DNA of 64,000 bases from positions 179 through 64,178 of the forward strand of contig JAHHSQ010000001.1 in assembly GCA_020025135.1 (NCBI GenBank), given 5' to 3'. Made by a program: the position numbers and the translations under genes. Positions within the stretch are counted from its first letter, which is position 1; every line of letters begins with the position of its first letter. Positions 13,779 to 40,702 of this stretch are shown piece by piece. This DNA is from Pectinatus sp. (GTDB lineage: Bacteria; Bacillota; Negativicutes; Selenomonadales; Selenomonadaceae). Under the pieces are notes generated by a model. That model did no database searches, was not told the DNA's origin, and saw nothing but the letters and a program-made list of their open reading frames with translations.

Positions 13779-14435
13779 TTGAGATTAAGAAAAAAACCTT
13801 GGATAGAAACAGCGATTAAGGAATATGCCGATTTGGTTTTTCCAAAAGGGACATTTCAACCGGAAGAGCTAGCAGGACATTGGCAGGAAAGGTTTCCACA
13901 AAAGCAAGAATTACACGTAGAATTGGGAACTGGAAAGGGCGATTTTATAACGCAGAATGCGCTTTTGCACCCGGAAATCAACTTTTTGGGGATAGAATTG
14001 CAACAGGATGTCATTTTTTATGCGGTGAAGAAGGCGGCGGAATTAAATTTAAAAAATGTGCAATTTATTGTTTTTGATATTAATAAATTAGAAACACTTT
14101 TGCTGCCAAGAGAAGCGAAACGTTTCTATCTCAATTTTTCTGACCCTTGGCCCAAAAAACGCCATGCCAAACGTCGGTTGACTCATGTCGATTTTTTGAA
14201 AAAATATCAGCACCTTTTGGGAAAAGGAGGAGAAATTTTTTTGAAGACGGACAATAGACCGCTCTTTGATTTCTCTCTGACACAGTTTGCTTTAGTAGAT
14301 TGTGATGTGCGAGCTATTACTAACGATTTACATAATAGTGAATACAATGCCGAAAACATTCAGACGGAATATGAAAGAAAGTTTAGTGGTTTAGGAGAAA
14401 AGATAAATCGCTGTGAGGTTATTTTTCGGTCATGA
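13779..14435 (+). CDS. trmB: tRNA (guanine46-N7)-methyltransferase
   Basis: ELGTGKGDF, NFSDPWPKKRHAKRRL and the TEYERKF motif are typical of TrmB. Confidence 0.9.
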   Translation: MRLRKKPWIETAIKEYADLVFPKGTFQPEELAGHWQERFPQKQELHVELGTGKGDFITQNALLHPEINFLGIELQQDVIFYAVKKAAELNLKNVQFIVFDINKLETLLLPREAKRFYLNFSDPWPKKRHAKRRLTHVDFLKKYQHLLGKGGEIFLKTDNRPLFDFSLTQFALVDCDVRAITNDLHNSEYNAENIQTEYERKFSGLGEKINRCEVIFRS

Positions 14436-15990
14436 TGGCGACGAAGAGGGAAGATAATAAAAAGAAATTTTGGAAAAATGACCGCGAGACTTTGCTGGTG
14501 CTAATGTATGTTTTTATTGATAAAAGCAATTAAATTATTGCCGAAAATAGTAAGTATATAGAGCAATTTATATATCAAAGGGTAAAATCCACCTGAATTG
14601 CTGGAAACTCTTAAAGCTAATCGGACTGAAGCACGGTTTTGAAAGAGAAATTGTTTGACAGTAACGAAAGTAGAAAAAATCGATTAGATGGTAGATGGTT
14701 AAATCCTAAGTACTATAAATAGACAATCAGCAGCCAAACTTCTAAGAGAAGGAGGTTCAACGACTATCTAGAGTAGGTCCGAGTGGGCCGAAGTGGGTGG
14801 CTCTTCTGATACAGAAGATGAAGATATAGTCTGTGCTCATGGGAAATCATGAGAAGTTTATTAGAACTACACTAAATTAACGCCTTGGTGTGAACATATT
14901 TTGCAGTGCTATTGGCTCTTTGAACATATTTAGCTCCAGCTTTGTCACCGCTGATTTAGATTTTCATAATCCGTATTACTTTCTCATTCGGCATTTTATC
15001 GTCGTATTGATTGGTACGATTGGTTTTTTTGTCGGCAAGAGGGTTAATTATCAGATTTGGCGCGATAAGATTGTATATATATATTTCTTGACATTGTTGC
15101 TCCTTTTGTTGGTAGTAGTACACGGCGTTACTATCAATGGAGCGAAGCGCTGGATAAATTTGATTTGGTTTCAGTTACAACCATCAGAGTTGGTAAAGAT
15201 AGTGGGAGTTATTCTTACGAGTAGTTATATCAGTGCTTGCGCTAAGATGCACCGGGACATTTCACTTTTTAATAAAAACATTGTTGCGGTCGGTGTTTTA
15301 GCATTGCTGGTTTTAGAACAACCGGATTTGGGTACTAGTATGATTATTATTGGTGTTCCAATTATCATGTATATTGTGGCTGGTATCGACCAAAAGACGA
15401 TAACGATTTTATTAATTGGAACGCTATTAGCACTGGTTTTGCTTGTTTGGGCGAAACCATATCGCTGGGACAGAATTATGATTTGGTATGACCCGTGGGC
15501 TAGGGCGCAGGGAGATGGTTATCAAACGGTACAGTCCATAATTGCCATCGGTTCAGGCGGTTTTTGGGGCATGGGTATCGGTAAAGGGGTGGCTAAATAT
15601 GCCTATTTACCAGAGGCTCATACCGATTTTGCTTTTGCAATTTTCTCACAGGAAATGGGTATGATTGGCGTCGTTTGTATTTTTATCTTGTACATGATAT
15701 TTTACTTTTATGCTTGGCGCGTGGCGATAAAAGCTAGGGATGTTTATGGTCGGTTACTCGGTTTTGGCATAGTTGCTTTGTTAGTTAGCCAAACCTTAAT
15801 CAATTTGGCAATGGTCATAGGATTGTTGCCGGTAGTCGGAGTGCCATTACCATTTATCAGTTATGGGGGGACAGCATTGCTTGTAAATATGTTTATGCTA
15901 GGCATTTTACAGAATATTAGCTTGGTCACAGATAAATATCCTTTGAAATTAGTGCCTAAAGAGGGAAAAACATTCGGCCGTAGTGGATGA
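14432..15990 (+). CDS. FtsW/RodA/SpoVE-family (SEDS) protein, split by one group I intron
   Basis: join(14432..14517,14907..15990). Exon 1 encodes M(M)ATKREDNKKKFWKNDRETLLVLMYVF plus 2 nt. The spliced junction ...LLVLMYVF(I)AIGSLNIFSSSFV reconstitutes TM1 with the same spacing I recall for B. subtilis SpoVE (LLLVIITLLLLTIGLIMVYSASAV). Exon 2 carries the rest of the SEDS fold (QPSELVK, PDLGT, LPEAHTDFAF, PFISYGG). Confidence 0.8.
14518..14906 (+). ncRNA. Group I intron (subgroup IA-like, ORF-less), copy A in the ftsW-like gene
   Basis: 5' exon ends gtttttat|. Guide sequence GTAAG is at 14550-14554, followed by an 8-bp P2 hairpin with a GCAA loop. Core motifs: attgctgg (14597), aatcagcagcc, ggttcaacgactat (14754-14767), gatatagtctg (14823-14833). 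P3 is ccacct/gggtgg. P9 has a GAAA loop. The intron ends ...ttttgcag|. An alternative in-frame 3' splice site lies at 14903. Confidence 0.85.
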
Positions 15991-16047
15991 ATGTTTTATA
16001 TAGAAATGATAGGGAAGGGTATAGTTGGGGTGTATTTTCCCAAAATA

Positions 16048-16087
16048 ATAGAGGCTGTTTTATCATTAATGATAAAACAGCCTCTAT
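16048..16087. terminator. Bidirectional terminator between the convergent ftsW-like and speD-like genes
   Basis: Near-perfect 20-nt inverted repeat atagaggctgttttatcatt/aatgataaaacagcctctat, flanked by A/T runs. Confidence 0.6.
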
Positions 16088-16097
16088 TTATGAGAAC

Positions 16098-16577
16098 CTA
16101 TTTATTGCGGCGGAATTTCCGTAAAAATTTTGGCTTGGGAAGGAGATGCATAACCTTAACACCAGTATTTTGCAAACGACGCCACTGTGTCATTTTGGTC
16201 TTGATATGTGGTTTCATATCTGTTACAGTGCCAAAATCGCCCCGCCTTAAATATGTCATTTTTACTGTATCTGGTTTGAGGGTACGTCTTAAATCCTTAA
16301 TAGCTTTTTCTGGTAAATTGTTAGCTTTACACACGAATAAGTCTAAGGCAGCATAGCGCAGTTCTTCGTACACATCAACGGATAAATGGCCTTCTGCTAA
16401 TGGCAAAAAAATCGCAATATGATTATTGTGAAAGATACGATGTTCACCGTCTAAAGGGGTGTAGTCGTTGTCAGCAAGTGCAGTTTTTAAATTATGCATC
16501 AGTGCTTCTGTATCGGCTAGTTTATCCGGCTTGCAGGAATACATATCTATGGTGAGTTGACGAGCTAGAATATTCAC
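16098..16577 (-). CDS. S-adenosylmethionine decarboxylase (SpeD/SpeH)-like protein lacking the processing Ser
   Basis: The N-terminal 115 aa align to class 1 AdoMetDC as I recall it (..LTIDMYSC..DKL.., LAEGHLSVDVYEELRYAALDLFVC versus B. subtilis [25 protein letters not shown]). The E-S-H cleavage motif reads E-G-H here. There is an additional ~40-aa basic C-terminal tail. Confidence 0.6.
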   Translation of the reverse strand: MNILARQLTIDMYSCKPDKLADTEALMHNLKTALADNDYTPLDGEHRIFHNNHIAIFLPLAEGHLSVDVYEELRYAALDLFVCKANNLPEKAIKDLRRTLKPDTVKMTYLRRGDFGTVTDMKPHIKTKMTQWRRLQNTGVKVMHLLPKPKFLRKFRRNK

Positions 16578-16623
16578 TTTTTAATACAACTAACTATAAT
16601 GTCAGTTTACCTTTCTTCTATGA

Positions 16624-17721
16624 TTATTCGAGAAAATCTTTTAGTTTTTTACTGCGACTGGGGTGGCGCAATTTACGTAATGCTTTAGCTTCAATCTGGC
16701 GAATGCGTTCGCGTGTTACGCCAAAACTTTGCCCTACTTCTTCTAATGTTCTTGCTCTGCCGTCATCTAAGCCAAAACGCAACCGCAAAACTTTTTCTTC
16801 GCGCGGAGTGAGGGTTTTTAAGACATCTTCGAGCTGTTCCTTGAGTAAGACAAAGAAGGCCGCATCAATTGGTGCTGGTGCTTCATGGTCCTCAATAAAA
16901 TCACCGAGATGAGAATCTTCTTCTTCGCCAATTGGGGTTTCTAAGGAAACTGGTTCTTGGGCAATTTTCGATATCTCGTGCACTCTTTCCACAGTGATGC
17001 CCATTTCTTTGGCAATCTCATCTGGCGAAGGGTCACGACCGAGGGATTGGAGAAGTTGGCGAGAAACACGAATTAACTTGTTGATAGTTTCTACCATATG
17101 CACTGGAATGCGGATGGTGCGAGCTTGGTCAGCAATAGCGCGCGTGATGGCTTGACGAATCCACCAAGTTGCATAAGTACTGAATTTATAACCTTTATTG
17201 TAATCAAATTTTTCAACAGCCTTAATTAAGCCTAGATTTCCTTCTTGAATGAGGTCTAAGAACATCATTCCACGTCCGACATAACGTTTGGCGATGCTGA
17301 CAACTAGACGCAAATTTGCTTCAGCTAATCTCTTTTGCGCCTCTACATCGCCTTGCTCCATGCGTTTAGCTAGGGCAATTTCTTCTTCGGCAGTTAGTAG
17401 AGGAACGCGACCAATTTCTTTTAAATACATGCGAACTGGGTCGTCGATATTTATGCCTTCGGGGATACTCAAATCGAGGTGCGGTTTGTGTTCGGGTGCT
17501 TTTTTAGTTTTATTAGCATGTTGTTCATCGATGAGGTTTATACCACTTTTGGTAAATTCTTCGTAGAGATTATCTAGTTGCTCCGTAGAAATATCGATGT
17601 CTTTTATCGCATCCATGACCTCGTCATAGGTAAGAGACCCTTTCTTTTTTCCTTTTTTTAATAGGTTGATGATGCAGTCGGTATGTTTTTTACTTAGCGC
17701 AGGCTTATTGGAATCTGCCAT
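16624..17721 (-). CDS. sigA: Primary RNA polymerase sigma factor (sigma-70/SigA)
   Basis: Regions 1.2-4.2 are present: [67 protein letters not shown]. Confidence 0.95.
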
Positions 17722-18074
17722 TACTATACGCCTCCTCTCAAAGAATGGTTTGTACGAAATGCAAACCAGTAATTACAGATTTTATAGTCTCAATTCCAGT
17801 AGCGGATACGGTTTGCAGTCCTAAAACGGGGCATGTATTTTTTTATCTTGCTGGTATATCGACCACTTGGCCCTGCACACATCTTAAAGATGGCGTATTG
17901 CTTATTTTATCGGCAAATTGTTTGGCTAATGAATTGCCAAAATGATAAAATACTTTTAATAGCAGGGCGCGTTGATATTTCTCTCGAGATAAATGTACAA
18001 ATTCTATCTTTTGGAGAATATGGAATTTTTTAAATGATGATTAAAATTCTCTATCGCAAAAGTCAGAATACTGA

Positions 18075-29000: not shown

Positions 29001-29378
29001 CAGCGCATTGTGGCAATAAAGACTGAGGCACAATTGACAGAATTAAAATCGGAATTGATAGATAGATTTGGTCCTTTATCGCCTTATGTAGATAATTTGC
29101 TCCGCATAGCAGCTATTAAAAATAAAGCGCGGTCTTTAGGTGTAAAATCTGTGGTGGAACAAGGGCTGGATTTGCAGATTAATTTATTGCCAGAACACCG
29201 TGTCGATGCCTCGGCATTGTTCTTATTAAAGAGCAAGTGGAAGAAGATGGTGACCTTGTTGCCAGCTAGCAATGCTCTGCGCTTGCATCTTACAGCGAGA
29301 ACAGATATCTTGTCAGTTTTAGATGATGCATTGCTCTTTTTATGGGAAAAATCGAAGAAGGAAAGGATGAAAAAGTGA
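26076..29378 (+). CDS. mfd: Transcription-repair coupling factor
   Basis: 1100 aa. Contains a CarD-like RID (GDYVVHVNYGIGKY), superfamily 2 helicase motifs (GDVGFGKTEVA, DEEQRFGV, SATPIPRT) and a TRCF domain. Confidence 0.95.
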   Translation: MFLTKIAQDKQVRQLICGYNDREKQYLYAYGVNGSQKHILAACCYQDNPRPMVIIVKNRENLLEWQSNLQALLPEEVEVQVLPAVDMVAFSTSAKSLELTAKRMEILGKLAQNKPVIVLTEINSAMQRDISAQSIKENSLYFESGDKLDRDELLKSLVNLGYERTEQVEHMGQFALRGGIIDIFPINMNCPVRLEFFDDTLESLRSFSVESQRSEAKLTTFFVMPLLLLNEKDEKESFLSYLSVDGIVLLDEPVHLEEEAKVVLKENEEIATEFFDWVELYEKLCSHKLLFFSAILQKQKAITPDVAVNMLVKKVTPFQRQINLFVSELQEKLLLGEEIIICMDDAGKVQYVKEILQKNHIFVNLPANADNSQGVGVQLVVNNFSEGMEWPDLKLVIYTEKDIMGRKKRHLRLPKVNKKNRIMHFTDINVGDYVVHVNYGIGKYLGIETIVLDGVHRDYLHIKYSGNDKLFVPVDQVSLLQKYIGSEGEVPHLSKMDSITWNKNKAKAKAAVEKIAKELINLYAKRKANKGYAFSEDTPWQREFEDAFPYEETADQLMAIKDIKSDMEKPVAMDRLLCGDVGFGKTEVAIRAAFKATMDGKQVAVLVPTTVLAEQHYQTFKHRLENFAPTLDVICRFRSLKEQRAIIEKVATGQIDILIGTHAILNEKKVKFANLGLLIVDEEQRFGVKQKEKIKQISENLDVLTLSATPIPRTLHMSLAGTRDMSIIETPPKDRFPIQTYVVEDNDTILRNAILREIKRGGQVYFIYNRVETIDKMYLRLSALLPEANIKIAHGQMSEALLEKAMVEFYEGKYNVLLATSIVENGLDIANANTIIIYDADMFGLSQLYQMRGRVGRSKKIAYAYFVYKKDKVLTEMAEKRLQAIKDFAELGSGFKIAMRDLEIRGAGNLLGAQQHGHIANVGFEMYCHLLEEAINELQTGKKKLEVPEPVLTLQVDAYIDGEYINDAMHKIEVYQRIVAIKTEAQLTELKSELIDRFGPLSPYVDNLLRIAAIKNKARSLGVKSVVEQGLDLQINLLPEHRVDASALFLLKSKWKKMVTLLPASNALRLHLTARTDILSVLDDALLFLWEKSKKERMKK

Positions 29379-32035
29379 TGGGTAATATACAAGTGGTTGG
29401 TCTTGGGCCAGCTGGAGAAAAGTTTATTAATCTGCATACTTGGCATATTTTAAACGATGCTGAACAAATATGCTTGCGGACCAAAATGCATCCAGCTGTA
29501 GAAGCCTTGGAAAAGAAAAATATAAATTTTATCAATTATCGGTAAGTTCAACGGGAAACCGCTGAATAGAGGTTATTATACCCAACTAAGAAATTGAATT
29601 GCTGAAAAGTCGTAAAGCCGATTAAACTAAAACATAATTTTGAAAAAGAAATAGGTGTGAAGGTGCTGAAAGGAGAAAAAATTAATCGGATAATATCTGG
29701 TGTGAATCGGGATATAAAAAATCGAAAATCAGCAGCCAAGCTCCAAAGAGGAGCAGGTTCAACGACTATTCCTCGTGAGGGAAGTAGGTATAAGCGTATC
29801 GAAGTGATTTCGCCCTAACAGGAGATGCTGAGGGAGAAGAGATAGTCTGTGCTTGTCGGAAACGACAAGGTGTCTATTATTGAGACCGCATAGATTTAGC
29901 GAAGCTATGTGAACACCACAGAAGTTATGATGATTTTTATCAAAATGGTTTATCTTTTGACGATGTCTACGAAAGAATTGTCACTGATTTATTAGTTAGG
30001 GCTAGCGTTAAAGATGTCGTATATGTAGTTCCAGGCAGTCCTATGGTTGCCGAAAGAACAGTGCCTATGTTATTAAAGCGGGCTGCTAGCGAGAATATTA
30101 AAGTAGAAGTAGTTCCAGCGATGAGTTTTTTGGAATTACTCTATGTAACTCTTCAAGTAGACCCAATTCAAGGTCTTTTAATTACAGATGCCTTTGCCTT
30201 ACAGGAAAAAGTATTGGATTTTTCTTTTGGCACAGTGATAACGCAATTATACGACAAGCATATGGCTTCAGAAGTTAAATTGACTCTGATGGATTATTTG
30301 CCAGATGATTATGAAGTGAGTGTTGTCTATCATCTAGGTATGTCAGATGAAAAGGTGACAAGCTTGCCACTTTATGAATTGGATAGAATTGAGAAGATAG
30401 ACTATTTGACGAGTTTATATGTCAAACCATATCAACAGGAAACGCAAACTTTTTCCATTAATCCATTGGTAGAAATTGTCAAAACTTTGCGTTCTCCAGG
30501 TGGATGTCCTTGGGATATACTGCAAACACATCGCTCTTTGAGAAATAATCTCATCGAAGAAACTTATTGATATTTGGTAAGCGTATCGAGAAATCGGTAT
30601 GAAAAATAAGAAATCGAAATGCTGGAACACCGCAAAGCTGATTAAACCACAACATAATCTCGAAAGATTTAGGTGTGAAGGTAGCGAAAGCAGAAAAAAT
30701 TAATCAGATGGTAGATGGCGTAAGCCTAAAATACCGTAAACCGGCAATCAGCAGCCAAGCTCTAAAAGGAGAAGGTTCAACGACTATTCCCCTAAAAGGA
30801 AGTAGGTGCGAGGGTACCGAAGTGGTTTCATCCCACAGGTAGAGCTGAGGGAAAAGAGATAGTCTGTGCTTTTGGGAAACTAAGAGAGGTTCTCTTTGAG
30901 AACTGTTTCAATTTAGCGAATTGAAATGAACAGCTTTATTAAAGTCAGGAAGTATTAGAAGCGATAGATAAAGAAGATGCGAATTTACTGTGTGAAGAAC
31001 TAGGCGATTTATTATTACAGATAGTTTTTCATGCTCGCATGGCAGAAGAAAGTAAATTGTTTTCTATGCAAGAAGTAATAGAGGGCATTACAAATAAATT
31101 GGTTTATAGGCATCCACATGTCTTTGGTGATGTTTCCGTGCGCGATGCGGGAGAAGTGCTTTTGAATTGGGAAAAATTAAAGCGAGCGGAGAAGAAGGAT
31201 AGAAAATACCTTTTAGATGGAATACCAAAAGATTTACCCGCTCTTTTAACGGCGGATAAACTGCAGTCTAAAGCAGCAAAGGTCGGCTTTGATTTTGCCA
31301 ATGTAGAAGCTGCTAAAGATAAAATATTAGAAGAATTACAAGAAACCCTAGAAGCTATTAAATTAGGAGAAGAGGAAAAAATAGAGGAAGAAATGGGCGA
31401 TTTGCTCTTTTCTGTCGTCAATTTCGCTCGTTTAAAGCACATAAATCCAGAAATTGCCTTATTAAAAAGCGATGCTGTTCGTTACTTGGACAGCTAGTGC
31501 GATTTATAGTAAGCATATCGGGAAACTGGTATGTGGCGTTTAGGAGCCGGCACAAAGAAATTGAATTGCTGGAAAGATGTAAAGCTAATTAAACCACAAC
31601 GCAATATTGAAGAAGTGTAGGCGTGACGGTGGCGAAAGCAGAAAAAATTAATTAGATGGTATATGGTTAAAACCTAAGTGCTAGAAAATTGTCAATCAGC
31701 AGCCAAGCTCTGAAGAGGAGCAGGTTCAACGACTATTTCCCGATGGGAAAGTAGGTACAAGCGTACTGAAGTTGTTTCGCCCTAACGGATAATGCCGAGG
31801 GAAAAGAGATAGTCTATGCTCACATGAAAGTGCGAGAAGTTTGTAAAAACTGTATTAAACTAGCGATTTAATACGAATAAAAACCGATATGGTAACAGTA
31901 GAAGCAAATAAAAAATTTCGCAAACGCTTTACCTTTATTGAAAGAGAATTAAAAAAATCTCAAATTGAGTGGTCCAAAGCGAATGCAGAAATGTTAGAGG
32001 ATTTATGGCAAAAGGCTAAACGAATGGAAGGATAA
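29378..32035 (+). CDS. yabN: YabN-type fusion protein (tetrapyrrole-methylase-like domain plus MazG NTP pyrophosphohydrolase domain), split by three group I introns
   Basis: join(29378..29532,29922..30567,30949..31462,31899..32035). Junctions: EKKNINF(I)SYDDFYQ; SLRNNLIEETY|EVLEAIDKEDANLLCEELGD (compare B. subtilis YabN ..MIEECYELLEAIDEED..); NPEIAL(L)EANKKFRKRFTFIE (compare ..EPEEALTMTNDKFRRRFSYIE..). These align without gaps to YabN as I recall it. The ATG overlaps the mfd stop (gTGATG). Confidence 0.85.
29533..29921 (+). ncRNA. Group I intron, copy C1 (yabN intron 1)
   Basis: 5' exon ends aattttat|. GTAAG at 29542-29546, and its TAA is the in-frame stop. P2 is ttcaacgg-GAAA-ccgctgaa. P3 is gaaat/atttc. 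P5a is ccgatta/taatcgg. P9 is cttgtcg-GAAA-cgacaag. The intron ends ...caccacag|. Confidence 0.85.
30568..30948 (+). ncRNA. Group I intron, copy C2 (yabN intron 2)
   Basis: 5' exon ends aaacttat|, then an immediate TGA. GTAAG at 30577-30581 pairs with cttat (U.G at the splice site). P2 is cgtatcga-GAAA-tcggtatg. P5a is ctgatta/taatcag. An in-frame TAA 9 nt upstream of exon 3 forces the 3' splice site to ...aaagtcag| (30948). Confidence 0.9.
31463..31898 (+). ncRNA. Group I intron, copy C3 (yabN intron 3)
   Basis: 5' exon ends attgccttat|. The P1 loop is 46 nt. GTAAG at 31509-31513. P2 is catatcgg-GAAA-ctggtatg. P5a is ctaatta/taattag. P7.2 is ggtac-aagc-gtact. The intron ends ...ggtaacag|. 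Confidence 0.85.
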
Positions 32036-32163
32036 CATAGCATTGTTTACACTAGAGAGAATTTTATCCATCTGAAGAGAATATTTATTTGGTGATGATT
32101 TTGTAGTTGCTAGATTATGGGTATGTTGACAAATGAAAAATAATAAAAAAGTGAAAAATTTGT

Positions 32164-32192
32164 TTGTCAAAATATAATAAATATATTATAAT
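32164..32192 (+). promoter_or_regulatory. Putative sigma-70 promoter of hup
   Basis: TTGTCA (32164-32169), a 17-nt spacer, then TATAAT (32187-32192), about 195 nt upstream of the hup start. Confidence 0.4.
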
Positions 32193-32388
32193 AGCCTTGT
32201 TTGTAAGGAACTTTATCTAAGTATGGCGGGTTATCCTCGTTCTTATGAAATGGATTGTTGAAGAGAGAATGCGAAGTTTGAGTATTTATAGACTTAAATG
32301 ACAGTTTGGTTATTTTATTGTAAACTGTATTTCCTCTCCCCGCACAAACCGTGAAATTATTTTAAAAGAAAAAAGGGAGGCCACATTC

Positions 32389-32664
32389 GTGAATAAATCC
32401 GAATTAATCGCTGGCGTAGCTGAACAAGCTAATTTAACTAAGAAAGATGCAGAAAAAGCAGTTAATGCTACTTTAGCTGTCATCCAGAATACTTTAGAAA
32501 CAGGCGAAAAAGTACAGATTATCGGTTTCGGTACTTTTGAAGTTAAAGAAAGAGCTGCTCGTAAGGGTCGCAATCCGTCTACTAAAGAAGAAATTGAAAT
32601 CCCAGCTTCTAAGCGCCCAGTATTTAAAGCAGGTAAAGCTTTAAAATCAGCAGTAAACAAATAA
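32389..32664 (+). CDS. hup: DNA-binding protein HU
   Basis: [27 protein letters not shown]...[41 protein letters not shown] is canonical HU. GGGAGG RBS and GTG start. Confidence 0.95.
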
Positions 32665-32678
32665 TTTTAGATGAAAAA

Positions 32679-32717
32679 GAGCGGGTTTGTACTTGTCGGT
32701 ACAGACCCGTTCTTTCT
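32679..32717 (+). terminator. Rho-independent terminator of hup
   Basis: Stem gagcgggtttgtac / gtacagacccgttc (14 bp with two non-Watson-Crick positions), followed by TTTCT. Confidence 0.6.
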
Positions 32718-32739
32718 AATTTAGGAGGTAATTACTGGG

Positions 32740-34351
32740 TTGTTAAACGTAGTTATAACAGGTGGAACCAGTGGCATAGGTTTGGCTACTGCAAAATTGT
32801 ATTTAGAAAAGGGAGCAAATGTCTATGCTGTGGCGCGTGATGTCGGGAAATATCAAGATATTCAGGCAGAATTACACGCAGAAAATTATCATTTTGTGCA
32901 GGCTGATATAAGAAATGTAGTTGATTGTCAGCGCGCTTGTATGGAAATTGCTAACAAAGGCAAAGTGATAGATATATTGGTCAATTCAGCAGGCGTTTAT
33001 GGCGAACGGGCCATTGGTGATACTGACGAAGAATTTTTTCAAACTATTTTGGATACTAATATAAAAGGCATGTATTTTATTAAATCGCCTGTGGCGAAAT
33101 GGTAAGCCTGTCGAGAAATTGGCAGAGCATGAAAAAGGAAATTGAATTGCTGGAATACCGTAAAGCCATTTGTACCACAACACAATCTCGGAAGAGATAG
33201 ATGTGAAGGTGACGAAAGTAGAAAAAAACAAATTGGATGATGCAAGGTTAAATCCTAAACATTTTGAAATCGGCAATCAGCAGCCAAGCTCTAAAAGGAG
33301 CAGGTTCAACGACTATTTCCTCAAAGGGAAGTAGACGCAAGCGCGTCGAAGCGGTTTCGCCCTAACAGATAATGCTGAGGGAAATGAGATAGTCTGTACT
33401 CATGAGAAAGCATGAGAAGTTCATCGGAGAACTGCATGGAAGTAGCGATTTCATGTGAAAAATAATAATTAGGTGTAAGTATGCATTGCCTTTACTAAAA
33501 AAGGGGCGCAATAAGGCGATTGTCAATATTTCTTCCGATGCCGGAATAAATGGCAATTATTTTTGTACGGCATATTGCGCTAGCAAGGGAGCGGTAACGG
33601 TTTTTACGAAGGCGCTTTCTTTAGAGTTGGCCCTAGATAAGATAAGAGTGAATTGTCTTTGCCCTGGTGATATCCGTACGCCCATGACAGAAGAGCAGTG
33701 GACAGACGATAACAGCGAGGCTGAGATGAGCTCTTTTTATCCCTTGGGGCGCATTGGAACAGCGGAGGAAGTGGCTAATGCCATTTATTTTTTAGCTTCA
33801 GAAAAAGCCAGCTTTATTAAAAATTATTGCCACGTCGTTTCTTAAAATCTAGAGAGAGAAGCGGTTAATTCAAAGAGGCAATTAATCTGTTTAGTAAGCA
33901 TATTGGGTAACTAGTGTGCATAGTATGTAATTTTACATATAATAAAGAAATTGAATTGCTGGAAAGGCGTAAAGCTGATTAAACTACAACGTGATGGTGA
34001 AATAAACATGGACGTGAAGGTAGCGAAAGCAAAAAAAATTAATCAGATGACATACGGTTAAATCCTAAGTGTCAGTTTATCGCTAATCAGCAGCGAAGCC
34101 CTGAAAAAGGGAACGTTCAACGACTATTCCTCCTGAGGGAAGTAGGCTAGAAGCGATAGCTAGCCGAAGTGATTTCGCCCAAACGGACAATGCCGTGGGA
34201 AAAGAGATAGTCTGTGCTCGTGAAAAATCACGAGGTGTTCGAAATAGAACAGCGGAATAGTAGCGCATTTCCGTGAACAAATTCTCCAGATGGGAGAGTC
34301 AGAACTGGCAGTGTAATCAGTATAGATGGTGGATTGACAGCTCATTCTTAA
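32740..34351 (+). CDS. Short-chain dehydrogenase/reductase (SDR), split by two group I introns
   Basis: join(32740..33080,33473..33817,34303..34351). Has TGGTSGIG, NSAG, and Y..ASK (YCASKGA). Junctions: TNIKGMYF(M)CKYALPLLKKGRNKAIVNISS and LASEKASF(I)TGSVISIDGGLTAHS. Both reproduce standard SDR spacing. Confidence 0.8.
33081..33472 (+). ncRNA. Group I intron, copy D1 (SDR intron 1)
   Basis: 5' exon ends gtattttat|. GTAAG at 33102-33106, and its TAA is in frame. P2 is ctgtcga-GAAA-ttggcag. P3 is ggaaat/gtttc. P7.2 is gacgc-aagc-gcgtc. The 3' end is ...ataattag| (33472). This is TAG rather than CAG, chosen from SDR spacing. Confidence 0.8.
33818..34302 (+). ncRNA. Group I intron, copy D2 (SDR intron 2)
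   Basis: 5' exon ends cagctttat|. The P1 loop is 76 nt and contains its own hairpin (aattattgcc...ggcaattaat). GTAAG at 33894-33898. P2 is gcatattgg-GTAA-ctagtgtgc. P7.2 is enlarged (ggctag...ctagcc). The intron ends ...gagagtcag|. An earlier CAG at 34287-34289 would be out of frame. Confidence 0.85.
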
Positions 34352-34445
34352 ATATTCAGCTTTCTTGACTGGATAATTGCATTTGCTTGAAAAAGTTGTT
34401 ATAATTGTAGAAAAATATGATAAATTTACTTTGAGGATATTATAA

Positions 34446-35579
34446 ATGGAAAAAAATACAAAAGGATTTAATAAAGAACAGGCCTTGGCAAATGCTTTAA
34501 AACAGATAGAACGAGATTTTGGCAAGGGCTCTATTATGCGGTTGGGAGAAGCGGCTTCTAATATGAATATTGAGGTCATTCATACCGGCAATTTGCCTTT
34601 GGATATTGCTCTCGGTGTTGGCGGTGTGCCGCGAGGCAGAATCGTGGAAATATATGGACCAGAATCCTCTGGGAAGACGACTATTGCACTACACATCGCT
34701 GCCGAAGCACAAAAAGCGGGCGGAATGGCAGCTTTTATCGATGCTGAACACGCTTTAGACCCTGTTTATGCCCAAAAATTAGGAGTAGATATTGATAATT
34801 TGCTTATTTCTCAACCAGATAACGGTGAACAGGCCTTGGATATAGCTGATGCTTTGGTGAGAAGTGGCGCTATTGATGTAGTAATTGTGGATTCGGTAGC
34901 TGCCTTAGTGCCTAAAGCAGAAATTGAAGGGGAAATGGGCGACTCCCATGTCGGTTTGCAAGCACGCTTGATGTCACAGGCAATGCGCAAATTGACTGGG
35001 TATATCAGCAAGTCACGTACGACGGCTATTTTCATCAACCAGATTCGTGAAAAAGTGGGTGTCATGTTTGGTAATCCAGAAACTACTACTGGTGGCAGAG
35101 CATTGAAATTTTATGCCACGGTGCGTTTAGATGTTCGCAAAATTGATACCATCAAACAAGGAACTGAAGTTGTAGGTAGCCGTACTAGAATTAAGGTGGT
35201 TAAAAATAAGGTTGCTCCACCATTTAGACAGGCCGAATTTGATATCATGTATGGTGAAGGTGTTTCTCGCGAAGGCAGTGTTATCGATTTGGGGGTCAAT
35301 TATGAAATCGTAGATAAGAGCGGTACTTGGTACTCTTATAATGGTAATCGCCTTGGACAAGGGAAAGAAAACGCCAAGCAATTTTTAAAAGAAAATCCTG
35401 ACCTTTGCCAGGAAATAGAGGATAAGATTAGAGCCAAGGTCAAGGCAGATAGACAAAAGGAATTAGAAGCGAAAGAAGCGAAAAAAGCAATTACTGCTAC
35501 TACTAAAGGAGAAACCGTTGTAGTAGTGAAGAATGTTAAGGATAATGCTGATGTGGAAGAAACCAGTCAAGAAAAGTAA
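34446..35579 (+). CDS. recA: Recombinase RecA
   Basis: GPESSGKTT Walker [15 protein letters not shown] and the rest of canonical RecA. Has an acidic/lysine-rich C-terminal extension. Confidence 0.97.
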
Positions 35580-36024
35580 TAAAACGGCATTAGTAAGGGC
35601 AGTTGATTTTTTGTCAGTTCATGACTATACTGTGTATAATTTGCGTAAAAAATTGATGCGCTGTGGTTATACAGAAAATGAAATAGATGTAGCGATAGAG
35701 AAATTATTAAAGTGCGGTTATCTTGATGATACCGCACTTTGTCATAGGGAGTGGCAAAGATATTTGCACAACGGCAATTACAGTTTTTTGCAAATTCGGC
35801 AGAAGTTGTTGCAAAATGGTTTTGCTGAAGACGTGATTGCTTCTTTACAGCCTAATAGAGAAGAACAGGATAGGTATGAAGGTGCTTTATTAGAGCAGAT
35901 GTTGCAGAAAAAATTTCTTCCTGACGATGATTATCAAAAAATTTGTGCTTATTTCTATCGAAAGGGCTTTTCTAGTGGCTTGATAAGAACAGCAGTAGAA
36001 AAATTTTTAAAAACACTTGAATAA
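35533..36024 (+). CDS. recX: RecA regulator RecX
   Basis: Repeated three-helix RecX pattern ([46 protein letters not shown]...). Overlaps the recA 3' end. The start could be any of the ATGs at 35533, 35545 or 35551. Confidence 0.8.
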
Positions 36025-36603
36025 AAGTTTATAAAATATTATCATATAATAATACTATTTTTTTACATTCTTACCTAATTTTGCAATAAAGGAACGCAAC
36101 CGGTGAACTTAGAAAGTATTATTTTAAAAAAGCTGAAATTTGGCAATGCAAAAGACAATATACCGGCTGCAATTATTTATATATCATGTGGTATTGATGA
36201 AAATTTAGCCATTCGTTTAAGTGAAGTTTTTAGGTGAAATTTAATGATAGTGTTTGGTGAGCGTGTTTTGTATAAAAGTGACAAATTATATTTACTATTC
36301 GGTTTTGTTGTGGTTAATGTAGTTTTCATCTATTTCGCCCATACTCACAAGCCATAATAAATGGGTAATATTAATATATTTTTCAAGGATAACAAATTTC
36401 ATTGTGGAAAGATGGTAAATCTGTAACCTGTATGAATAGGTTAAATTTATATCATTCCATGAAGATACAGAGGAAGATTGGTCAGAGTATCAAATGATTG
36501 TTATTATATGGTGCTTATAAAATTAGAGATAAATTTATGACAAAAGTTTGGTAAATCTTAATTAAATTAGTTAGTAGGTTTTATAAAAATATATAGAGAA
36601 AGA

Positions 36604-38121
36604 GTGATAATTTTGGCATACTATTACAAAGAAGCATCTCATACTTTTGGGGAATATTTGTTAGTTCCTGGCTATTCTTCTGACAAGTGCATTCCAGATA
36701 ATGTAAGTTTAAAGACCCCGTTGGTTCGCTTTAAAAAAGGAGAAGAACCCGCTATTTCTTTAAATATACCGATGGTTTCTGCTATCATGCAGGCGGTTTC
36801 TAACGATACCATGGCTATTGCTTTAGCTAAAGAAGGCGGTTTATCTTTTATTTATGGCTCGCAAAGTATAGAAAAGCAGGCTGAAATGGTTGCCAAGGTT
36901 AAGAATTATAAATCCGGTTTCGTAAATAGTGATTCTAATATTAAACCGACTACTACTTTAGGGGAAATTTTGGAATTAAAAGAAGCTACCGGTCACTCCA
37001 CCATGGCGGTAACAGAAGATGGTACTGATACTGGTAAATTACTCGGTATAGTTACTAGCCGTGATTATCGTATTACGAGAATGCCGATGTCCATGCAAGC
37101 CAAAGAGTTTATGACCCCATTTTCTAAATTAGTTTATGCAGATGCGGAAACAACAACGTTGTCTCAGGCTAATGACATTATTTGGGATAAAAAATTAAAT
37201 ATGTTGCCTTTGGTAGACCGCAATCAGTGTTTGCGTTATATGGTTTTCCGCAAGGATTATACCGATAATAAGGAAAATAAGAATGAGTTGATTGATAGCA
37301 AGAAGCGCTATATGGTCGGTGCTGGTATTAATACACGTGACTATGCAGAACGTGTACCGGCATTAGTGGAGGCTGGCGCAGATGTTCTTTGCATTGACTC
37401 TTCTGAAGGTTTTACAGAATGGCAACGTATTACTTTAAATTACATTCATGAGCATTTTGGCGACCGCGTCAAAGTGGGCGCTGGAAATGTTGTCGATGCT
37501 GATGGTTTTAGATTCTTGGCAGAAGCGGGAGCAGATTTTGTCAAAGTTGGTATCGGTGGAGGTTCTATCTGTATAACCAGAGAAACGAAGGGTATTGGCC
37601 GTGGCCAAGCTACTTCTATTATCGATGTTGCTAAGGCTCGTGATGAATACTATGAGGAAACTGGTATATATGTTCCGATTTGTTCAGATGGTGGTTTAGT
37701 ACACGATTACCATATGACCTTGGCCTTGGCTATGGGAGCAGATTTTATGATGCTCGGCCGTTATTTCTCTCGTTTTGATGAAAGCCCAACAAACAAAGTT
37801 CGCATTAATGGCACTTATTACAAAGAATATTGGGGTGAAGGTTCCAATAGAGCACGTAATTGGCAACGTTATGATTTAGGTGGACAGAAAAATAAATTAT
37901 CTTTTGAAGAAGGCGTTGATTCTTATGTTCCATATGCCGGCGCTTTAAAAGATAATGTTGATTTGTCCTTGAGTAAGATTCGCTCTACCATGTGCAATTG
38001 TGGTGCTTTAAATATTAAAGAATTCCAAGAAAAAGCGAAATTAACATTGGTTTCAGCAACCAGCATTGTAGAAGGCGGTTCACACGACGTAATTTTGAAA
38101 GACGCTTTCTCACACGAATAA
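36604..38121 (+). CDS. IMP dehydrogenase-family protein (with CBS pair)
   Basis: FGEYLLVPG, a CBS region, the catalytic loop [12 protein letters not shown], and GGLVHDYH...LGRYF. Looks like the ~500-aa IMPDH-related clade. Start uncertain (GTG 36604 or TTG 36613). Confidence 0.8.
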
Positions 38122-38128
38122 TTTTTAG

Positions 38129-38167
38129 CAATCTACCCCGGCATCATGTGGGGTAGATTGTTCTTTT
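38129..38167 (+). terminator. Rho-independent terminator after the IMPDH-like gene
   Basis: 11-bp stem caatctacccc...ggggtagattg, followed by TTCTTTT. Confidence 0.65.
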
Positions 38168-38180
38168 AAAGGAGAAAATC

Positions 38181-38867
38181 ATGAAGATAAAATTAATGAG
38201 GTATACAGCAGAGCCCGAGCGCGTGGTGGCTATGGCCGCTAGACTTTGTTATTCGCCTATAGGCGCTAGCGAATTAGAAGAGACCATGAGCGATAAGCAG
38301 GTACAAAATTTGGTGCGTAAAATTGTTGAACTAGGTCATTGGTCTACACTAGAACATGTCACCTTTACTTTTGCTGCTGAAGGGATTTCGCGTGTTTTGA
38401 CTCATCAATTAGTACGTCATCGCATCGCGTCATATTCGCAACAATCACAGCGTTATGTATCGGAACATGATTTTGAATACATTGTGCCTCCGACAATTGC
38501 TAGAAATGCACAGGCTAAGGAAAAATTTTTGGCTTTAATGGACAATGTGAGGGATACGTACAATGCTTTGACTGAAATGGGAATTCCCAAAGAAGATGCG
38601 CGTTATTCTCTGGCCAATGCTACAGAAACTAAAATAGTCATGACGTTTAATGCTCGTTCTCTCTTGAATTTCTTTTCCTTACGGTGTTGTAATAGAGCCC
38701 AATGGGAAATCAGAATGATGGCCAATTTAATGCTGAAAGAAGTAAAGAAAGTAGCGCCGTTGTTGTTTAAAAATGCAGGGCCAGATTGCGTATCGAAGGG
38801 CATTTGCTCAGAGGGAAAAATGACCTGTGGTGAATTTGAAAATATGATAAAATTGCGTGAGGAATAA
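38181..38867 (+). CDS. thyX: FAD-dependent thymidylate synthase
   Basis: ThyX motif [14 protein letters not shown] (RHR..S....S.R). Length about 228 aa. Confidence 0.9.
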
Positions 38868-38869
38868 AT

Positions 38870-39670
38870 ATGAAAAGTCACGGTAATAATAAAAAAAAGA
38901 GAATTCCTATTTCTAATGAACAGACAGATACTGCCGATATTTTAGTTGGTCGCAATGCTGTGCGTGAAGCATTGAAAGGACGGCGCGCTATCAACAAAAT
39001 TTTGTTTGCTGATAATGCTCATGGTGGTTCTCTGCATGAAATAGTTGAGTTGGCGAAAGAAAAAAAGGTTTTGACCAGTAGAGTTCCGCAAAAAAAGATA
39101 GAACAATTATGTGGTACGGCGAAACATCAGGGGATTATAGCTTATGTTGCACCAGTAGAATATGCGGATTTCGATGTTGTACTCGACAATTTGTTGGATA
39201 AAGAAGACCCTTTGCTTGTCATTTTAGATGAATTAGAAGACCCCCATAACCTTGGCGCTATTATCCGTACAGTTGATGCCGTAGGAGCAGATGGTGTAAT
39301 AATACCGAAGCATCGTAGTTGCCCACTCTCCTCTACCGTGGCCAAAACATCGGCCGGAGCAATTGAATATGTACCTGTTATGCGGGTAAATAATTTAGCT
39401 CGCGCCATGGAAGATTTGAAAAAGAGAGGCTTCTGGATTGCTGGAACAGATGCTGAAGCTAAACAATCTTATACGGAGGGGAATTTTTCTGGGCCTATGG
39501 CCATAGTTATTGGCAGTGAAGGGAAAGGAATTACTCGCTTGGTTAAAGAAAAATGTGATTACTTACTTAGCATTCCAATGCGGGGAAAGGTAAATTCGCT
39601 TAATGCGTCTAATGCGGCAGCGATTTTGTTGTATGAGGTTTATCGGCAACGAAAAGCGATGAAAGGATAA
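38870..39670 (+). CDS. rlmB: 23S rRNA (guanosine-2'-O)-methyltransferase RlmB (YacO-type)
   Basis: TrmH-family motifs: ILDELEDPHNLGAIIRTVDAVGADGVI, VIGSEGKGI, SLNASNAAAILLYE. Confidence 0.85.
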   Translation: MKSHGNNKKKRIPISNEQTDTADILVGRNAVREALKGRRAINKILFADNAHGGSLHEIVELAKEKKVLTSRVPQKKIEQLCGTAKHQGIIAYVAPVEYADFDVVLDNLLDKEDPLLVILDELEDPHNLGAIIRTVDAVGADGVIIPKHRSCPLSSTVAKTSAGAIEYVPVMRVNNLARAMEDLKKRGFWIAGTDAEAKQSYTEGNFSGPMAIVIGSEGKGITRLVKEKCDYLLSIPMRGKVNSLNASNAAAILLYEVYRQRKAMKG

Positions 39671-39672
39671 CT

Positions 39673-40702
39673 ATGAGAAGCTTACCGCGTCCTCAATTAT
39701 TAGTAGATGGATATAATGTTATTAATTGTTGGCCGGGTCTTTTAGATAGAGATTTAGAATATTCCAGAGATAAACTCATTCACATCCTGCGGGAATATGG
39801 AGCATATGAAAATTATGATATTACGATTGTTTTTGATTGAAATTATCGTATGAGAATATACATGCGGTAATAATTCCAGTCAGTATGTTTAGAGATAAGC
39901 ATATAAAGATTGCTGATAAAGGCATCAACACTGTTTTAACTGCTGGAAACCCCTAAAGGTATTTGAACCACAACATAAACATGCAAAAAGGTTAAATGTG
40001 AAGGTGACGAAAGTAGAAAAAATCAGATACATGGCATATGGTTAAATCCTAAGTGCTTGAAATGGGTAATCAGCAACTAAGCTCTGAATAGGAGAAAGCT
40101 CAACGACTATTCCTCTTGAGGGAAGTACCTGACAAGCGATAGGTTAGGGATATGGACAGGCCTGAACAGATTAGGTTGCAGGATAAGATATAGTCTGTGC
40201 TCAATGGAAACACTGAGATGTTCCAGAGGGAACTGCATGGGTATAGCGAGCTGATGTGAACAGAATTATCGTTGTACAGAGTAGAAATGGAAATATAAAT
40301 ATCTGATACGCACTCTGTTGGTTATTTTAACGAGAAATACAGGCTTTATACACGAAATCTTGTCGTAGTACGGAATATCATGATAAACATTTTGCGATAA
40401 TTTATACCAAAGAAAAAGAAACGGCAGACAGTTATATTGAACGTTTGGCATACTATTTTTCTCATGAAGGAAAAGAAGTTTTTGTCGTCACTTCGGACGG
40501 AGCAGAACAAAATACTATTTTGGGAGCTGGCGCTTATCGCATCACAGTGAGGGAATTACAAATGGCAGTAAAAAATGCCAAAAAAAAGATGCGCAAGCAA
40601 TACATTCACAAGGTATCTGTTCCGAAGGGAAGAAATGAATTGGCGGATTATTTACAGGCTGATGTTTTGGAAAAATTGGAGGAGTTGCGTAAGAAAAAGT
40701 GA
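39673..40702 (+). CDS. yacP: NYN-domain ribonuclease YacP/Rae1, split by one group I intron
   Basis: join(39673..39837,40343..40702). The spliced sequence ...LLVDGYNVINCWP...YENYDITIVFD|ALYTKSCRSTEYHDKHFAIIYTKEKETADSYIERL...VVTSDGAEQ aligns along its length with B. subtilis YacP as I recall it (..VIVVFDAHLVKG...VIFTKENETADERIEKL..VATSDYTEQ). It follows rlmB, as in Bacillus. Confidence 0.8.
39838..40342 (+). ncRNA. Group I intron, copy E (yacP), divergent member with a retargeted guide sequence
   Basis: 5' exon ends gtttttgat|, then an immediate TGA. The guide sequence is GTCAG (39879-39883), complementary to exon ttgat with U.G at the splice site. P2 is tatgttta-GAGA-taagcata. P3 is ctgtt/aacag. 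P5a is gtatttga/tcagatac. Core motifs: actgctgg, aatcagcaac, gctcaacgactat, gatatagtctg. An ~80-nt tail follows P9.2. An in-frame TAA at 40328-40330 forces the 3' splice site to ...aaatacag| (40342). Confidence 0.8.

Follow-up and report, generated by a model that had tools for sequence, protein, structure and literature searches.

Eleven subgroup IA2 group I introns lacking open reading frames within five housekeeping genes of a Negativicutes chromosome

The 64-kb stretch of DNA analysed here (hereafter the window; contig JAHHSQ010000001.1 of the Pectinatus sp. assembly GCA_020025135.1) is a piece of core chromosome carrying ruvA, PBP1A, mutS2, ung, trmB, rpoD, dnaG, mfd, recA, recX, guaB, thyX, rimP, nusA and infB, together with lipopolysaccharide genes that identify its host as a diderm Firmicute. 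Five of its + strand genes are interrupted by eleven group I introns, numbered i1 to i11 below: an ftsW/rodA/spoVE-type gene (14432..15990, one intron), a membrane acyltransferase gene of the Acyl_transf_3 family (21662..24388, four introns), yabN, coding for a protein with TP_methylase and MazG domains (29342..32035, three introns), a short-chain dehydrogenase/reductase (SDR) gene (32740..34351, two introns), and yacP, encoding an NYN-domain RNase of the Rae1 type (39673..40702, one intron). This amounts to one intron per ~6 kb over the window and one per 2.4 kb over a 26-kb stretch. A first, sequence-only reading of this DNA had proposed the same eleven elements, all in sense orientation within coding sequences and devoid of open reading frames (ORFs) for endonucleases, and neither an endonuclease nor a transposase gene is present in any of them.

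An Rfam scan of the window yielded precisely eleven matches to the group I intron model RF00028, each covering the full length of the model at 57-75 bits (the curated gathering score is 50 bits) and all lying on the + strand inside the five genes; no RNA family besides RF00028 was detected in the 64 kb. Core motif P (AATTGCTGGAA) is exact in 8/11 copies and differs by a single mismatch in the other three, while motif R (GGTTCAACGACTAT) is exact in 9/11, the remaining two having one and two mismatches, respectively. The combined Q..R pattern matches the eleven elements and nothing else, for a chance expectation of 0. Since the Rfam model, motifs P and R and the Q..R pattern all coincide on the same eleven places, the elements are real, far beyond chance. 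Nor are they an artefact of one assembler, because an independent Logan assembly contains i1 whole (contig L103, run SRR14298095; 99.97% identity over 3.2 kb) and a part of i10 (contig L001, whose start lies within i10 and whose sequence matches the window at 100% identity).

Folding of the eleven aligned copies with RNAalifold recovered P2, P3, P4, P5, P5a, P5b, P6, P7.1, P7.2, P8, P9, P9.1 and P9.2; P7 and the exon-guide helix P1 were added by hand and 97 base pairs were then counted. Standard pairs occupy 96.1% of the 1060 cells, compared to 81.1 ± 0.7% in shuffled alignments and 37-43% when pairing partners were slid by 1-3 columns. Changes on both sides affect 58 of the 97 pairs (32.5 ± 2.9 after shuffling, 11-18 after sliding), and none of 500 shuffles attained any of the observed pairing measures. 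The covariation previously claimed for P3, P5, P5a, P7.2 and P9 holds for every one of these helices and extends to P2, P8, P9.1 and P9.2; P4 and P7 are invariant across the eleven copies. Such numerous compensatory changes despite 18-40% divergence indicate that the fold has been kept under selection. Two hairpins, P7.1 and P7.2 (helices 14-16, columns 327-365), separate the 5' strand of P7 from P3', as had been noted in support of an IA-like affiliation. Together with the extended P9 domain, in which P9, P9.1 and P9.2 (helices 18-20) all covary, they refine the assignment to subgroup IA2. This assignment agrees with the nucleotide similarity detected by blastn to 152 phage records, 105 of which are Staphylococcus phages, mostly large phage K-type myoviruses. 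Judging from the Rfam model, the covariation and the similarity to Twort-like phages, all eleven elements belong to subgroup IA2 of the group I introns.

The splice sites follow a common pattern. A U·G pair marks the 5' splice site in P1 of 11/11 copies, and the 5-bp helix between the exon end and the internal guide sequence (IGS) is paired in 55/55 cells, with one compensatory and four one-sided changes. In i11, where G replaces U at exon position -3 (TTGAT), the guide compensates with C in place of A; at position -5, seven copies form U·G, three C-G and one U-A. The pentanucleotide at the end of the 5' exon is TTTAT in 7 copies, CTTAT in 3 and TTGAT in 1, and the introns end in ACAG (5 copies), TCAG (2), GCAG, TTAG, TGAG or TTG (1 each). 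Introns of the form U/...G/ (a slash marks a splice junction) had been proposed from the letters alone, and 20 of the 22 boundaries then given are right. The two wrong ones are the 3' ends of i4 and i5, after correction of which a terminal G is found in 11/11 introns. Intron phases are mixed, and an in-frame stop codon lies within 0-19 codons of the intron start in 11/11 cases, four phase-0 introns opening directly with a TAA or TGA codon.

The single intron of the ftsW/rodA-type gene, i1 (14518..14906, 389 nt, RF00028 score 72.6 bits), is inserted in phase 2 after codon 28, with ..TTTAT/ as 5' exon end and ..TTTTGCAG/ as 3' intron end. In yabN, i6 (29533..29921, 389 nt, 57 bits) runs from ..TTTAT/ to ..ACAG/; i7 (30568..30948, 381 nt, 58.2 bits) is a phase-0 intron with ..CTTAT/, a TGA as first intron codon and ..TCAG/; and i8 (31463..31898, 436 nt, 68.5 bits) is inserted in phase 1, with ..CTTAT/ and ..ACAG/. 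The SDR gene contains i9 (33081..33472, 392 nt, 63.9 bits; ..TTTAT/ and ..TTAG/) and i10 (33818..34302, 485 nt, 69.9 bits), the latter having a long P1-loop hairpin and a terminal stem, TCTCC..GGAGA, directly followed by TCAG/. Finally, i11 of the yacP/NYN gene (39838..40342, 505 nt, 59 bits) lies in phase 0 after ..TTGAT/, which is paired by the IGS GUCAG, and starts with a TGA codon and ends in ..ACAG/.

The acyltransferase gene is the most densely interrupted. Its five exons (21662-21868, 22295-22335, 22747-22801, 23175-23289 and 23670-24388; 207, 41, 55, 115 and 719 nt) add up to 1137 nt of coding sequence, to be compared with 1590 nt of intron. The first intron, i2 (21869..22294, 426 nt, 68.1 bits), is in phase 0 with TAA as its first codon and extends from ..TTTAT/ to ..ACAG/, as does i3 (22336..22746, 411 nt, 63.9 bits), from which it is separated by the 41-nt exon. 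After the 55-nt exon follow i4 (22802..23174, 373 nt, 74.9 bits; 5' exon ..TTTAT/) and then i5 (23290..23669, 380 nt, 63.8 bits; 5' exon ..CTTAT/). The ends initially assigned to i4 (23188) and i5 (23673) give a product that misses an 11-residue conserved block (..ACYQLYFMVIL..) and contains a spurious insert of 5 residues; an ORF nevertheless appeared because the errors of 14 nt and 4 nt cancel in frame. Translation in all frames showed that the conserved block (ILFFGLACYQLYFLVILL) is encoded by the exon separating i4 from i5, but in another reading frame, placing the 3' splice site of i4 after G 23174 (..ATATTGAG/CTTATAATT, also written ..ATATTGAG/CTTATAATTTAC) and that of i5 after G 23669 (..AAAAATTG/TATGGTTTT, also written ..AAAAATTG/TATGGTTTTAC). 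With these ends, the i4 junction (WSFIY/LIIYSVSYQNLGFFYP..) fits the homolog pattern, the i5 junction (..GLACYQLYFLVILL/WFYIMMPIW..) shows the same pattern as the homologs, and the region around both reads ..WSFIY/LIIYSVSYQNLGFFYPGELLKILFFGLACYQLYFLVILL/WFYIMMPIW... The 378-aa product aligns with Pectinatus and Schwartzia homologs without internal gap, at 51-58% identity. Two other explanations, a frameshift in the T8 run of the exon and the loss of a micro-exon by recombination, are unneeded now that splice sites 23174 and 23669 have been found. The micro-exons 22295-22335 and 22747-22801 are flanked by introns with near-identical 5' splice-site helices; exon skipping through cross-reaction between neighbouring introns of this gene seems possible, and homologous recombination between them would delete exons.

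In-silico removal of the introns yields five full-length proteins with Pfam matches spanning whole domains: FtsW (389 aa; FTSW_RODA_SPOVE, 1e-97, profile positions 4-352/356), the acyltransferase (profile positions 6-315/326), YabN from four exons (495 aa, or 483 aa from the methionine of MGNIQ, where homologs begin; MazG, 6e-39, 1-74/74, and TP_methylase, 4e-20), the SDR protein from three exons (244 aa; adh_short_C2, 7e-59, 6-236/236) and YacP from two exons (174 aa; NYN_YacP, 7e-47, 1-166/166). The junctions are gapless against seven FtsW homologs for i1 (..VLMYVF/IAIGSLN..), against acyltransferase homologs for i3 (SYVGF/MKKRF), against eight YabN homologs for i6 (NINF/ISYDDFY), i7 (EETY/EVLEAID) and i8 (EIAL/LEANKKF), against the structures PDB 4ni5 and 5itv for i9 (GMYF/MCKYALP) and i10 (EKASF/ITGSVISIDGG), and against Bacillus subtilis YacP (PDB 5mq9) for i11 (ITIVFD/ALYTKS); that of i2 (FGLFY/NLDIN) falls within a block that is near-invariant among homologs. 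The claims that the hosts are housekeeping genes (cell division, acyltransferase, MazG, SDR, RNase) and that excision restores gapless frames are thus borne out, the latter for nine introns as originally delimited and for 11/11 once the ends of i4 and i5 are corrected.

It could be argued that the host genes are decaying pseudogenes and the ribozymes dead relics. The host has no close sampled relative, so that selection on these genes escapes direct measurement, and the acyltransferase gene consists of more intron than coding sequence. Yet every exon is open and in register, strongly conserved residues are retained on either side of each junction, and the conservation of the cores together with the 58 compensatory pairs requires purifying selection on the fold. 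We therefore regard this explanation as highly improbable.

For YabN, FtsW and the acyltransferase in spliced form, the nearest homologs belong to Pectinatus, Anaerovibrio, Schwartzia, Selenomonas and Sporomusaceae and are at most ~60% identical; among 5.8 billion protein clusters nothing closer was found, save for identical exon fragments of the same organism. The host is thus an unsampled, deep-branching member of the Negativicutes. An exact look-up of six spliced proteins (YabN with its two possible starts) retrieved no annotated intron-less allele from the protein collection. Public collections hold only fragments corresponding to last exons, namely P0121 (366 aa, from 14890-15990 of ftsW) and P0241 (234 aa, from 23684-24388 of the acyltransferase gene), indicating that gene callers split these genes and annotate truncated proteins. 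A syntenic relative (L245, GCA_029782595.1), with the order mfd .. yabN - HU - SDR, possesses uninterrupted yabN and SDR genes and no intron, and its site orthologous to that of i7 reads gaagtttat/gaagtt. The YabN homolog P0001 of this relative (L245:6001-7599; JARCCX010023591.1) carries an exact tandem duplication of 47 residues spanning the i7 position, which could be either an assembly artefact or real.

The introns presumably self-splice in vivo. In the mechanism that we propose, the host genes would be transcribed through their introns, and the last five exon bases ([U/C]U[U/G]AU) would pair with the guide G-U-[A/C]-A-[G/A], located 15-90 nt into the intron, to form P1. A free guanosine bound in P7 would then attack at the P1 U·G splice site, after which the terminal G of the intron would replace the guanosine and the exons would be joined, which restores the reading frame. 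Bacterial protein genes seldom contain group I introns, and this is usually put down to trailing ribosomes that disturb the folding of the ribozyme (Hausner et al. 2014); the early in-frame stop codons probably shield the ribozyme from ribosomes while it folds. Because each host gene would depend on splicing, the introns would be kept functional.

A regulatory role might also be envisaged, in which splicing efficiency, responding to temperature, a metabolite or the rate of translation, tunes genes of cell-envelope and nucleotide housekeeping. The introns have been retained for a long time, a precedent exists in the temperature-dependent flagellin introns of thermophilic Bacillus (as cited in the Thiomargarita paper), and splicing efficiency varies widely among near-identical IStron copies of Clostridioides difficile (bioRxiv 10.1101/2023.11.20.567912). 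No ligand-binding or sensor domain is attached to any of the eleven copies, however, their host genes have no common function, and retention is simply explained if only precise intron loss is tolerated. Co-option as regulators accordingly strikes us as improbable.

What had escaped the sequence-only reading is the relationship of these ribozymes to IStrons. Group A IStrons consist of an IA2 intron with an IS200/IS605 module downstream of P9.2, and insert after TTGAT, ATTAT or TTTAT; the insertion sequence (IS) module starts after a GAACGA, GAACAA or GAAUAA motif and the element ends in TCAG (Tourasse et al. 2014, PMC4227781). They occur in Firmicutes (including the Negativicutes Megasphaera and Megamonas) and Fusobacteria, 58% of their insertions are intragenic, in many unrelated cellular protein genes, and copies within one strain are generally >93% identical; ORF-less and TnpA-less copies that spread have been documented as well (PMC4227781). 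All eleven window introns possess a covarying hairpin with the loop TAGCGA followed by G(U)GAAC(A) and then by 6-80 nt up to the terminal G. As the target pentanucleotide, the IA2 features and the GAAC motif match the description of Tourasse et al., the window introns are, by sequence, IA2 ribozymes of the group A IStron family, corresponding to the 5' part of these elements.

A scan with the core pattern, covering one genome per species, matched at least 101 stretches, those listed being mostly from Clostridia, Erysipelotrichaceae, Enterococcus, Selenomonadaceae, Pectinatus, Anaerovibrio, Mitsuokella, Phascolarctobacterium, Fusobacterium and Leptotrichia; the pattern is general to IA2 introns and also matches at least 120 viral contigs. 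An nhmmer profile built from the window copies was used to align the relatives, and it aligns over its full length to 30 loci among the at least 101 matches listed. These relatives fall into two classes. The first comprises true IStrons, with the pentanucleotide, a conserved P1-loop hairpin (CACTCGTGACTTTAGTCGTGAGT), GAACGACAACCTC.. and an ORF of ~400 aa, which in L050 and L054 encodes TnpB (Pfam OrfB_IS605 and TNB domains). The second comprises ORF-less introns within protein genes of Enterococcus columbae, a Pectinatus metagenome-assembled genome (MAG), Erysipelotrichaceae and Fusobacterium sp. oral taxon 370, and the window copies belong, on sequence grounds, to this class. The Fusobacterium intron (L069) matches the window profile over its full length and comes from a strain for which a free-standing intron beside TTGAT has been reported (Tourasse et al., PMC4227781). 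In Pectinatus sp. MAG061 (JAHHSR010000066.1), the IStron hairpin consensus (L042:9-28) and a free-standing ORF-less intron (L042:958-1338), the latter within a coding sequence and at a TTGAT target, lie ~900 nt apart, so that intron and IStron forms coexist in a genus related to the host of the window.

A tblastn search, for which the queries were a Y1 TnpA and 12 ORFs that follow related IStron ribozymes and include their TnpB genes, identified neither TnpB nor TnpA in the 64 kb. The IStron hairpin consensus, which occurs in seven related loci and in gut-metagenome IStrons, has no match in the window even with three mismatches allowed. At the position of the IStron hairpin, 8/11 copies have a P1-loop hairpin, every one different, and 3/11 have none. 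A short terminal stem precedes ..CAG/ in i2, i7, i10 and i11 only; its counterpart in the IStron L003 surrounds the IS module together with the right-end hairpin. The copies could in principle be currently active, non-autonomous IStrons, resembling miniature inverted-repeat transposable elements and moved by a TnpA encoded elsewhere in the genome. Their target motif and the architecture of their termini are indeed those of group A IStrons, ORF-less and TnpA-less copies of which have spread, and the Pectinatus MAG contig pairs a free-standing intron with an IStron hairpin. However, the consensus hairpin is missing, the subterminal hairpins differ in each copy or are lacking, and the copies are just 60-82% identical, as against generally >93% for mobile copies within a strain, all of which makes present-day activity quite improbable.

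Pairwise identities range from 60 to 82%, i4 and i5 being the most similar (82%). Neighbour-joining trees including the relatives resolve three lineages: lineage A (i1, i4 and i5; bootstrap 93-95), lineage B (i2, i3, i6, i7, i8, i9 and, loosely attached, i10; bootstrap 45-72), and i11, which stands apart and groups with TTGAT-type elements of Negativicutes (the Pectinatus MAG, and Anaerovibrio and Phascolarctobacterium IStrons). None of 100 bootstrap replicates placed all eleven copies in a single clade. One metagenome scan, run with a P8 motif specific to lineage B among 223 loci, gave 21 matches; nine of these are chance matches, and the other 12 are real and correspond to IStrons of other organisms from human and primate gut. 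Wherever enough downstream sequence is available, these gut IStrons show TTTAT/, the consensus hairpin CACTCGTGACTTTAGTCATGAG and TnpB, and one of the TTGAT type also has a Y1 TnpA. Their ribozymes are 70-76% identical to the lineage B copies, the same range as lineage B copies among themselves. The host genome would thus have been colonised at least three times, and two lineages seem to have multiplied within it into different genes, to at least three and at least six or seven copies. The insertions are probably old, or at least drawn from an already diverse pool; with 60-82% identity and a fold kept through compensatory changes, the copies look like old, fixed and now probably immobile introns.

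How did ORF-less copies reach eleven sites? The answer that we favour, at roughly even chances, is that they were once mobilised by the Y1 transposase TnpA supplied in trans. TnpA would have driven insertion into DNA serving as lagging-strand template, after the pentanucleotide, and the end hairpins would have decayed later, once the transposase had been lost. The nesting of the copies among IStrons, the pentanucleotide target, the vestigial hairpins and stems at the positions of IStron ends, and the strand bias all point in this direction. The transposons IS608 and ISDra2 insert their active strand into the lagging-strand template. Insertion of this kind places an IStron in sense orientation in genes that are co-directional with replication. 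GC skew is positive across the whole window, so that the + strand is probably leading, and all eleven introns lie on this G-rich strand: introns occur in 5/23 genes on the + strand versus 0/22 on the - strand (one-sided Fisher p = 0.028), target pentamers numbering 445 and 408, respectively.

Several considerations weigh against this history. The role of TnpA is deduced indirectly, from the family relation, the pentanucleotide, the strand bias and what remains of the end hairpins. Statistical support for the strand bias is weak (p about 0.03), the insertion events are not independent of one another, and the target motif is equally explained by the pairing required for splicing. No single TnpA could act on these copies today, as the eight P1-loop hairpins all differ and three copies have none, and CTTAT lies outside the published IStron targets. 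The trees are based on simple identity distances and on a limited sample of relatives among the matches listed, and the searches for mobility genes cover 64 kb of the genome.

The main rival is spread at the RNA level, in which an excised intron reverse-splices into transcripts complementary to its guide and is then reverse transcribed and recombined into the chromosome. Under this scenario one would understand why copies in the window have neither a mobility gene nor a conserved transposase hairpin, and why the 11 sites have nothing in common but the five exon nucleotides paired by the guide; copies whose guide is GUAAG are found at both UUUAU and CUUAU sites, as wobble pairing permits. Likewise, 11/11 copies are sense-oriented within transcribed genes, the most similar pair (i4/i5, 82%) adjoin in one transcript, and two lineages reached several genes without any ORF. 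The exon-guide pairing, however, is needed for splicing under any insertion route and hence does not discriminate between them; no reverse transcriptase is seen in the window, and none of the 22 - strand genes has an intron despite 408 target pentamers, although RNA-level insertion should ignore the direction of replication. Reverse splicing has, moreover, never been demonstrated as a natural insertion route, and we consider it somewhat unlikely here. Overall, IA2 introns that splice as outlined above and originate from the IStron family provide what is likely the best explanation of the locus as a whole.

Group A IStrons such as CdISt1 of C. difficile, FnISt1 and the Megasphaera/Megamonas elements resemble the window copies in the full-length alignment to the profile at 70-76% identity, in P7.1/P7.2, the P9 to P9.2 domain and GAAC(A/G) after P9.2, in the T-rich pentanucleotide target (TTTAT, TTGAT) and the TAA, TGA or TAG with which the intron opens, in the terminal stem before ..CAG/ (in several window copies), and in their sense orientation within unrelated cellular protein genes of hosts that include Negativicutes. 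Unlike them, the window copies lack TnpB, TnpA and the omega-RNA region, only 6-80 nt following the GAAC motif, as well as the conserved subterminal hairpin; they use CTTAT as an extra target, their 3' ends vary (GCAG, ACAG, TCAG, TTAG, TGAG, TTG), and they are old, 60-82% identical, whereas IStron copies are near-identical. There are also 11 of them in 26 kb, against 1-24 IStrons per whole genome. The free-standing IA2 introns of Fusobacterium periodonticum, Fusobacterium sp. oral taxon 370 and Turicibacter (Tourasse 2014, PMC4227781) and the three found in C. difficile 630 (bioRxiv 10.1101/2023.11.20.567912) are likewise ORF-less, reside within cellular protein genes beside TTGAT-type motifs and lack IStron ends. 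The published cases, however, number one to few per genome with no intragenomic expansion reported, whereas two of the window lineages have expanded in neighbouring genes, with up to four introns per gene.

IA2 introns of Twort, phage K-like and other Firmicute phages belong to the same subgroup, with detectable nucleotide similarity, can be several per gene and also show an in-frame stop after the 5' splice site; in contrast to the introns of the window, which is core chromosome, they interrupt genes of phages, and homing endonucleases frequently accompany them. Other chromosomal introns that interrupt cellular coding sequences are those of recA/nrdE in the Bacillus cereus group, cyanobacterial nrdE, flagellin of thermophilic Bacillus and dsrA of Ca. 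Thiomargarita nelsonii, of which the flagellin and dsrA introns have been described as IA2. They differ from the present ones in being single, at conserved homing sites or isolated, and do not form a multi-copy paralogous family across neighbouring genes.

The sequence-only reading had held colonisation of cellular coding sequences by such a family to be undescribed. In kind it is known, through IStrons (PMC4227781): IStron-family IA2 introns in unrelated cellular protein genes are on record and ORF-less or free-standing relatives have been mentioned. As to its degree, our survey of the literature retrieved no report of a multi-copy, ORF-less and hairpin-less expansion of IStron-type introns, of four group I introns in one small chromosomal gene, of such an intron density in a bacterial chromosome, or, apart from the IStron survey, of group I introns in Negativicutes. 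What is new is how dense and how old the introns are, and that ORF-less copies have spread in number. Eleven introns are tolerated by five unrelated core genes, one of which comprises more intron than coding sequence and has exons of 41 and 55 nt; group I introns can, it appears, become fixed multi-copy residents of a bacterial chromosome, and an IStron ribozyme may outlive its own transposon. The copies also provide a ready-made series of paralogs in which the arrival of ORF-less introns at new sites can be studied. Were the density of the window maintained throughout, the genome would carry an organelle-like load of hundreds of fixed group I introns, which seems to us an unlikely prospect. 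If true, this would be the most intron-rich bacterial chromosome known, its load having been built by ribozymes that need no element-encoded protein (through reverse splicing or a since-lost transposase), and a natural test case for intron proliferation and fixation despite coupled transcription and translation.

The 700 nt between yabN and the SDR gene (32036-32739) contain a sole ORF of 116 aa, on the - strand (32310-32660); it matches no Pfam or NCBIfam family, and no RNA family was detected in 32036-32739. Dense clusters of group I introns were also encountered outside the window. In a rabbit-gut Clostridia MAG (Lapin-010__bin8; L095:1-8000, CANQPY010000001.1:184001-192000), 8 kb contain 11 RF00028 matches. 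Seven of these fall within 2.8 kb, with exons of just ~35-60 nt between them. The exons resemble a Gp23-type phage major capsid protein, and genes for a GIY-YIG (SegE-like) endonuclease and a 486-aa DUF7487 protein are present in the same region; the locus resembles a (pro)phage capsid gene interrupted by exceptionally many group I introns. As a phage capsid gene accompanied by a homing endonuclease, it was ruled out as a chromosomal parallel. Two or three group I introns per 0.6-1.6 kb are found in L088:700-2310, L086:200-820, L059:5260-6000 and L030:4690-5920, which derive from Oscillospiraceae and Lachnospiraceae MAGs, Pseudalkalibacillus salsuginis and a rabbit-gut Clostridia MAG.

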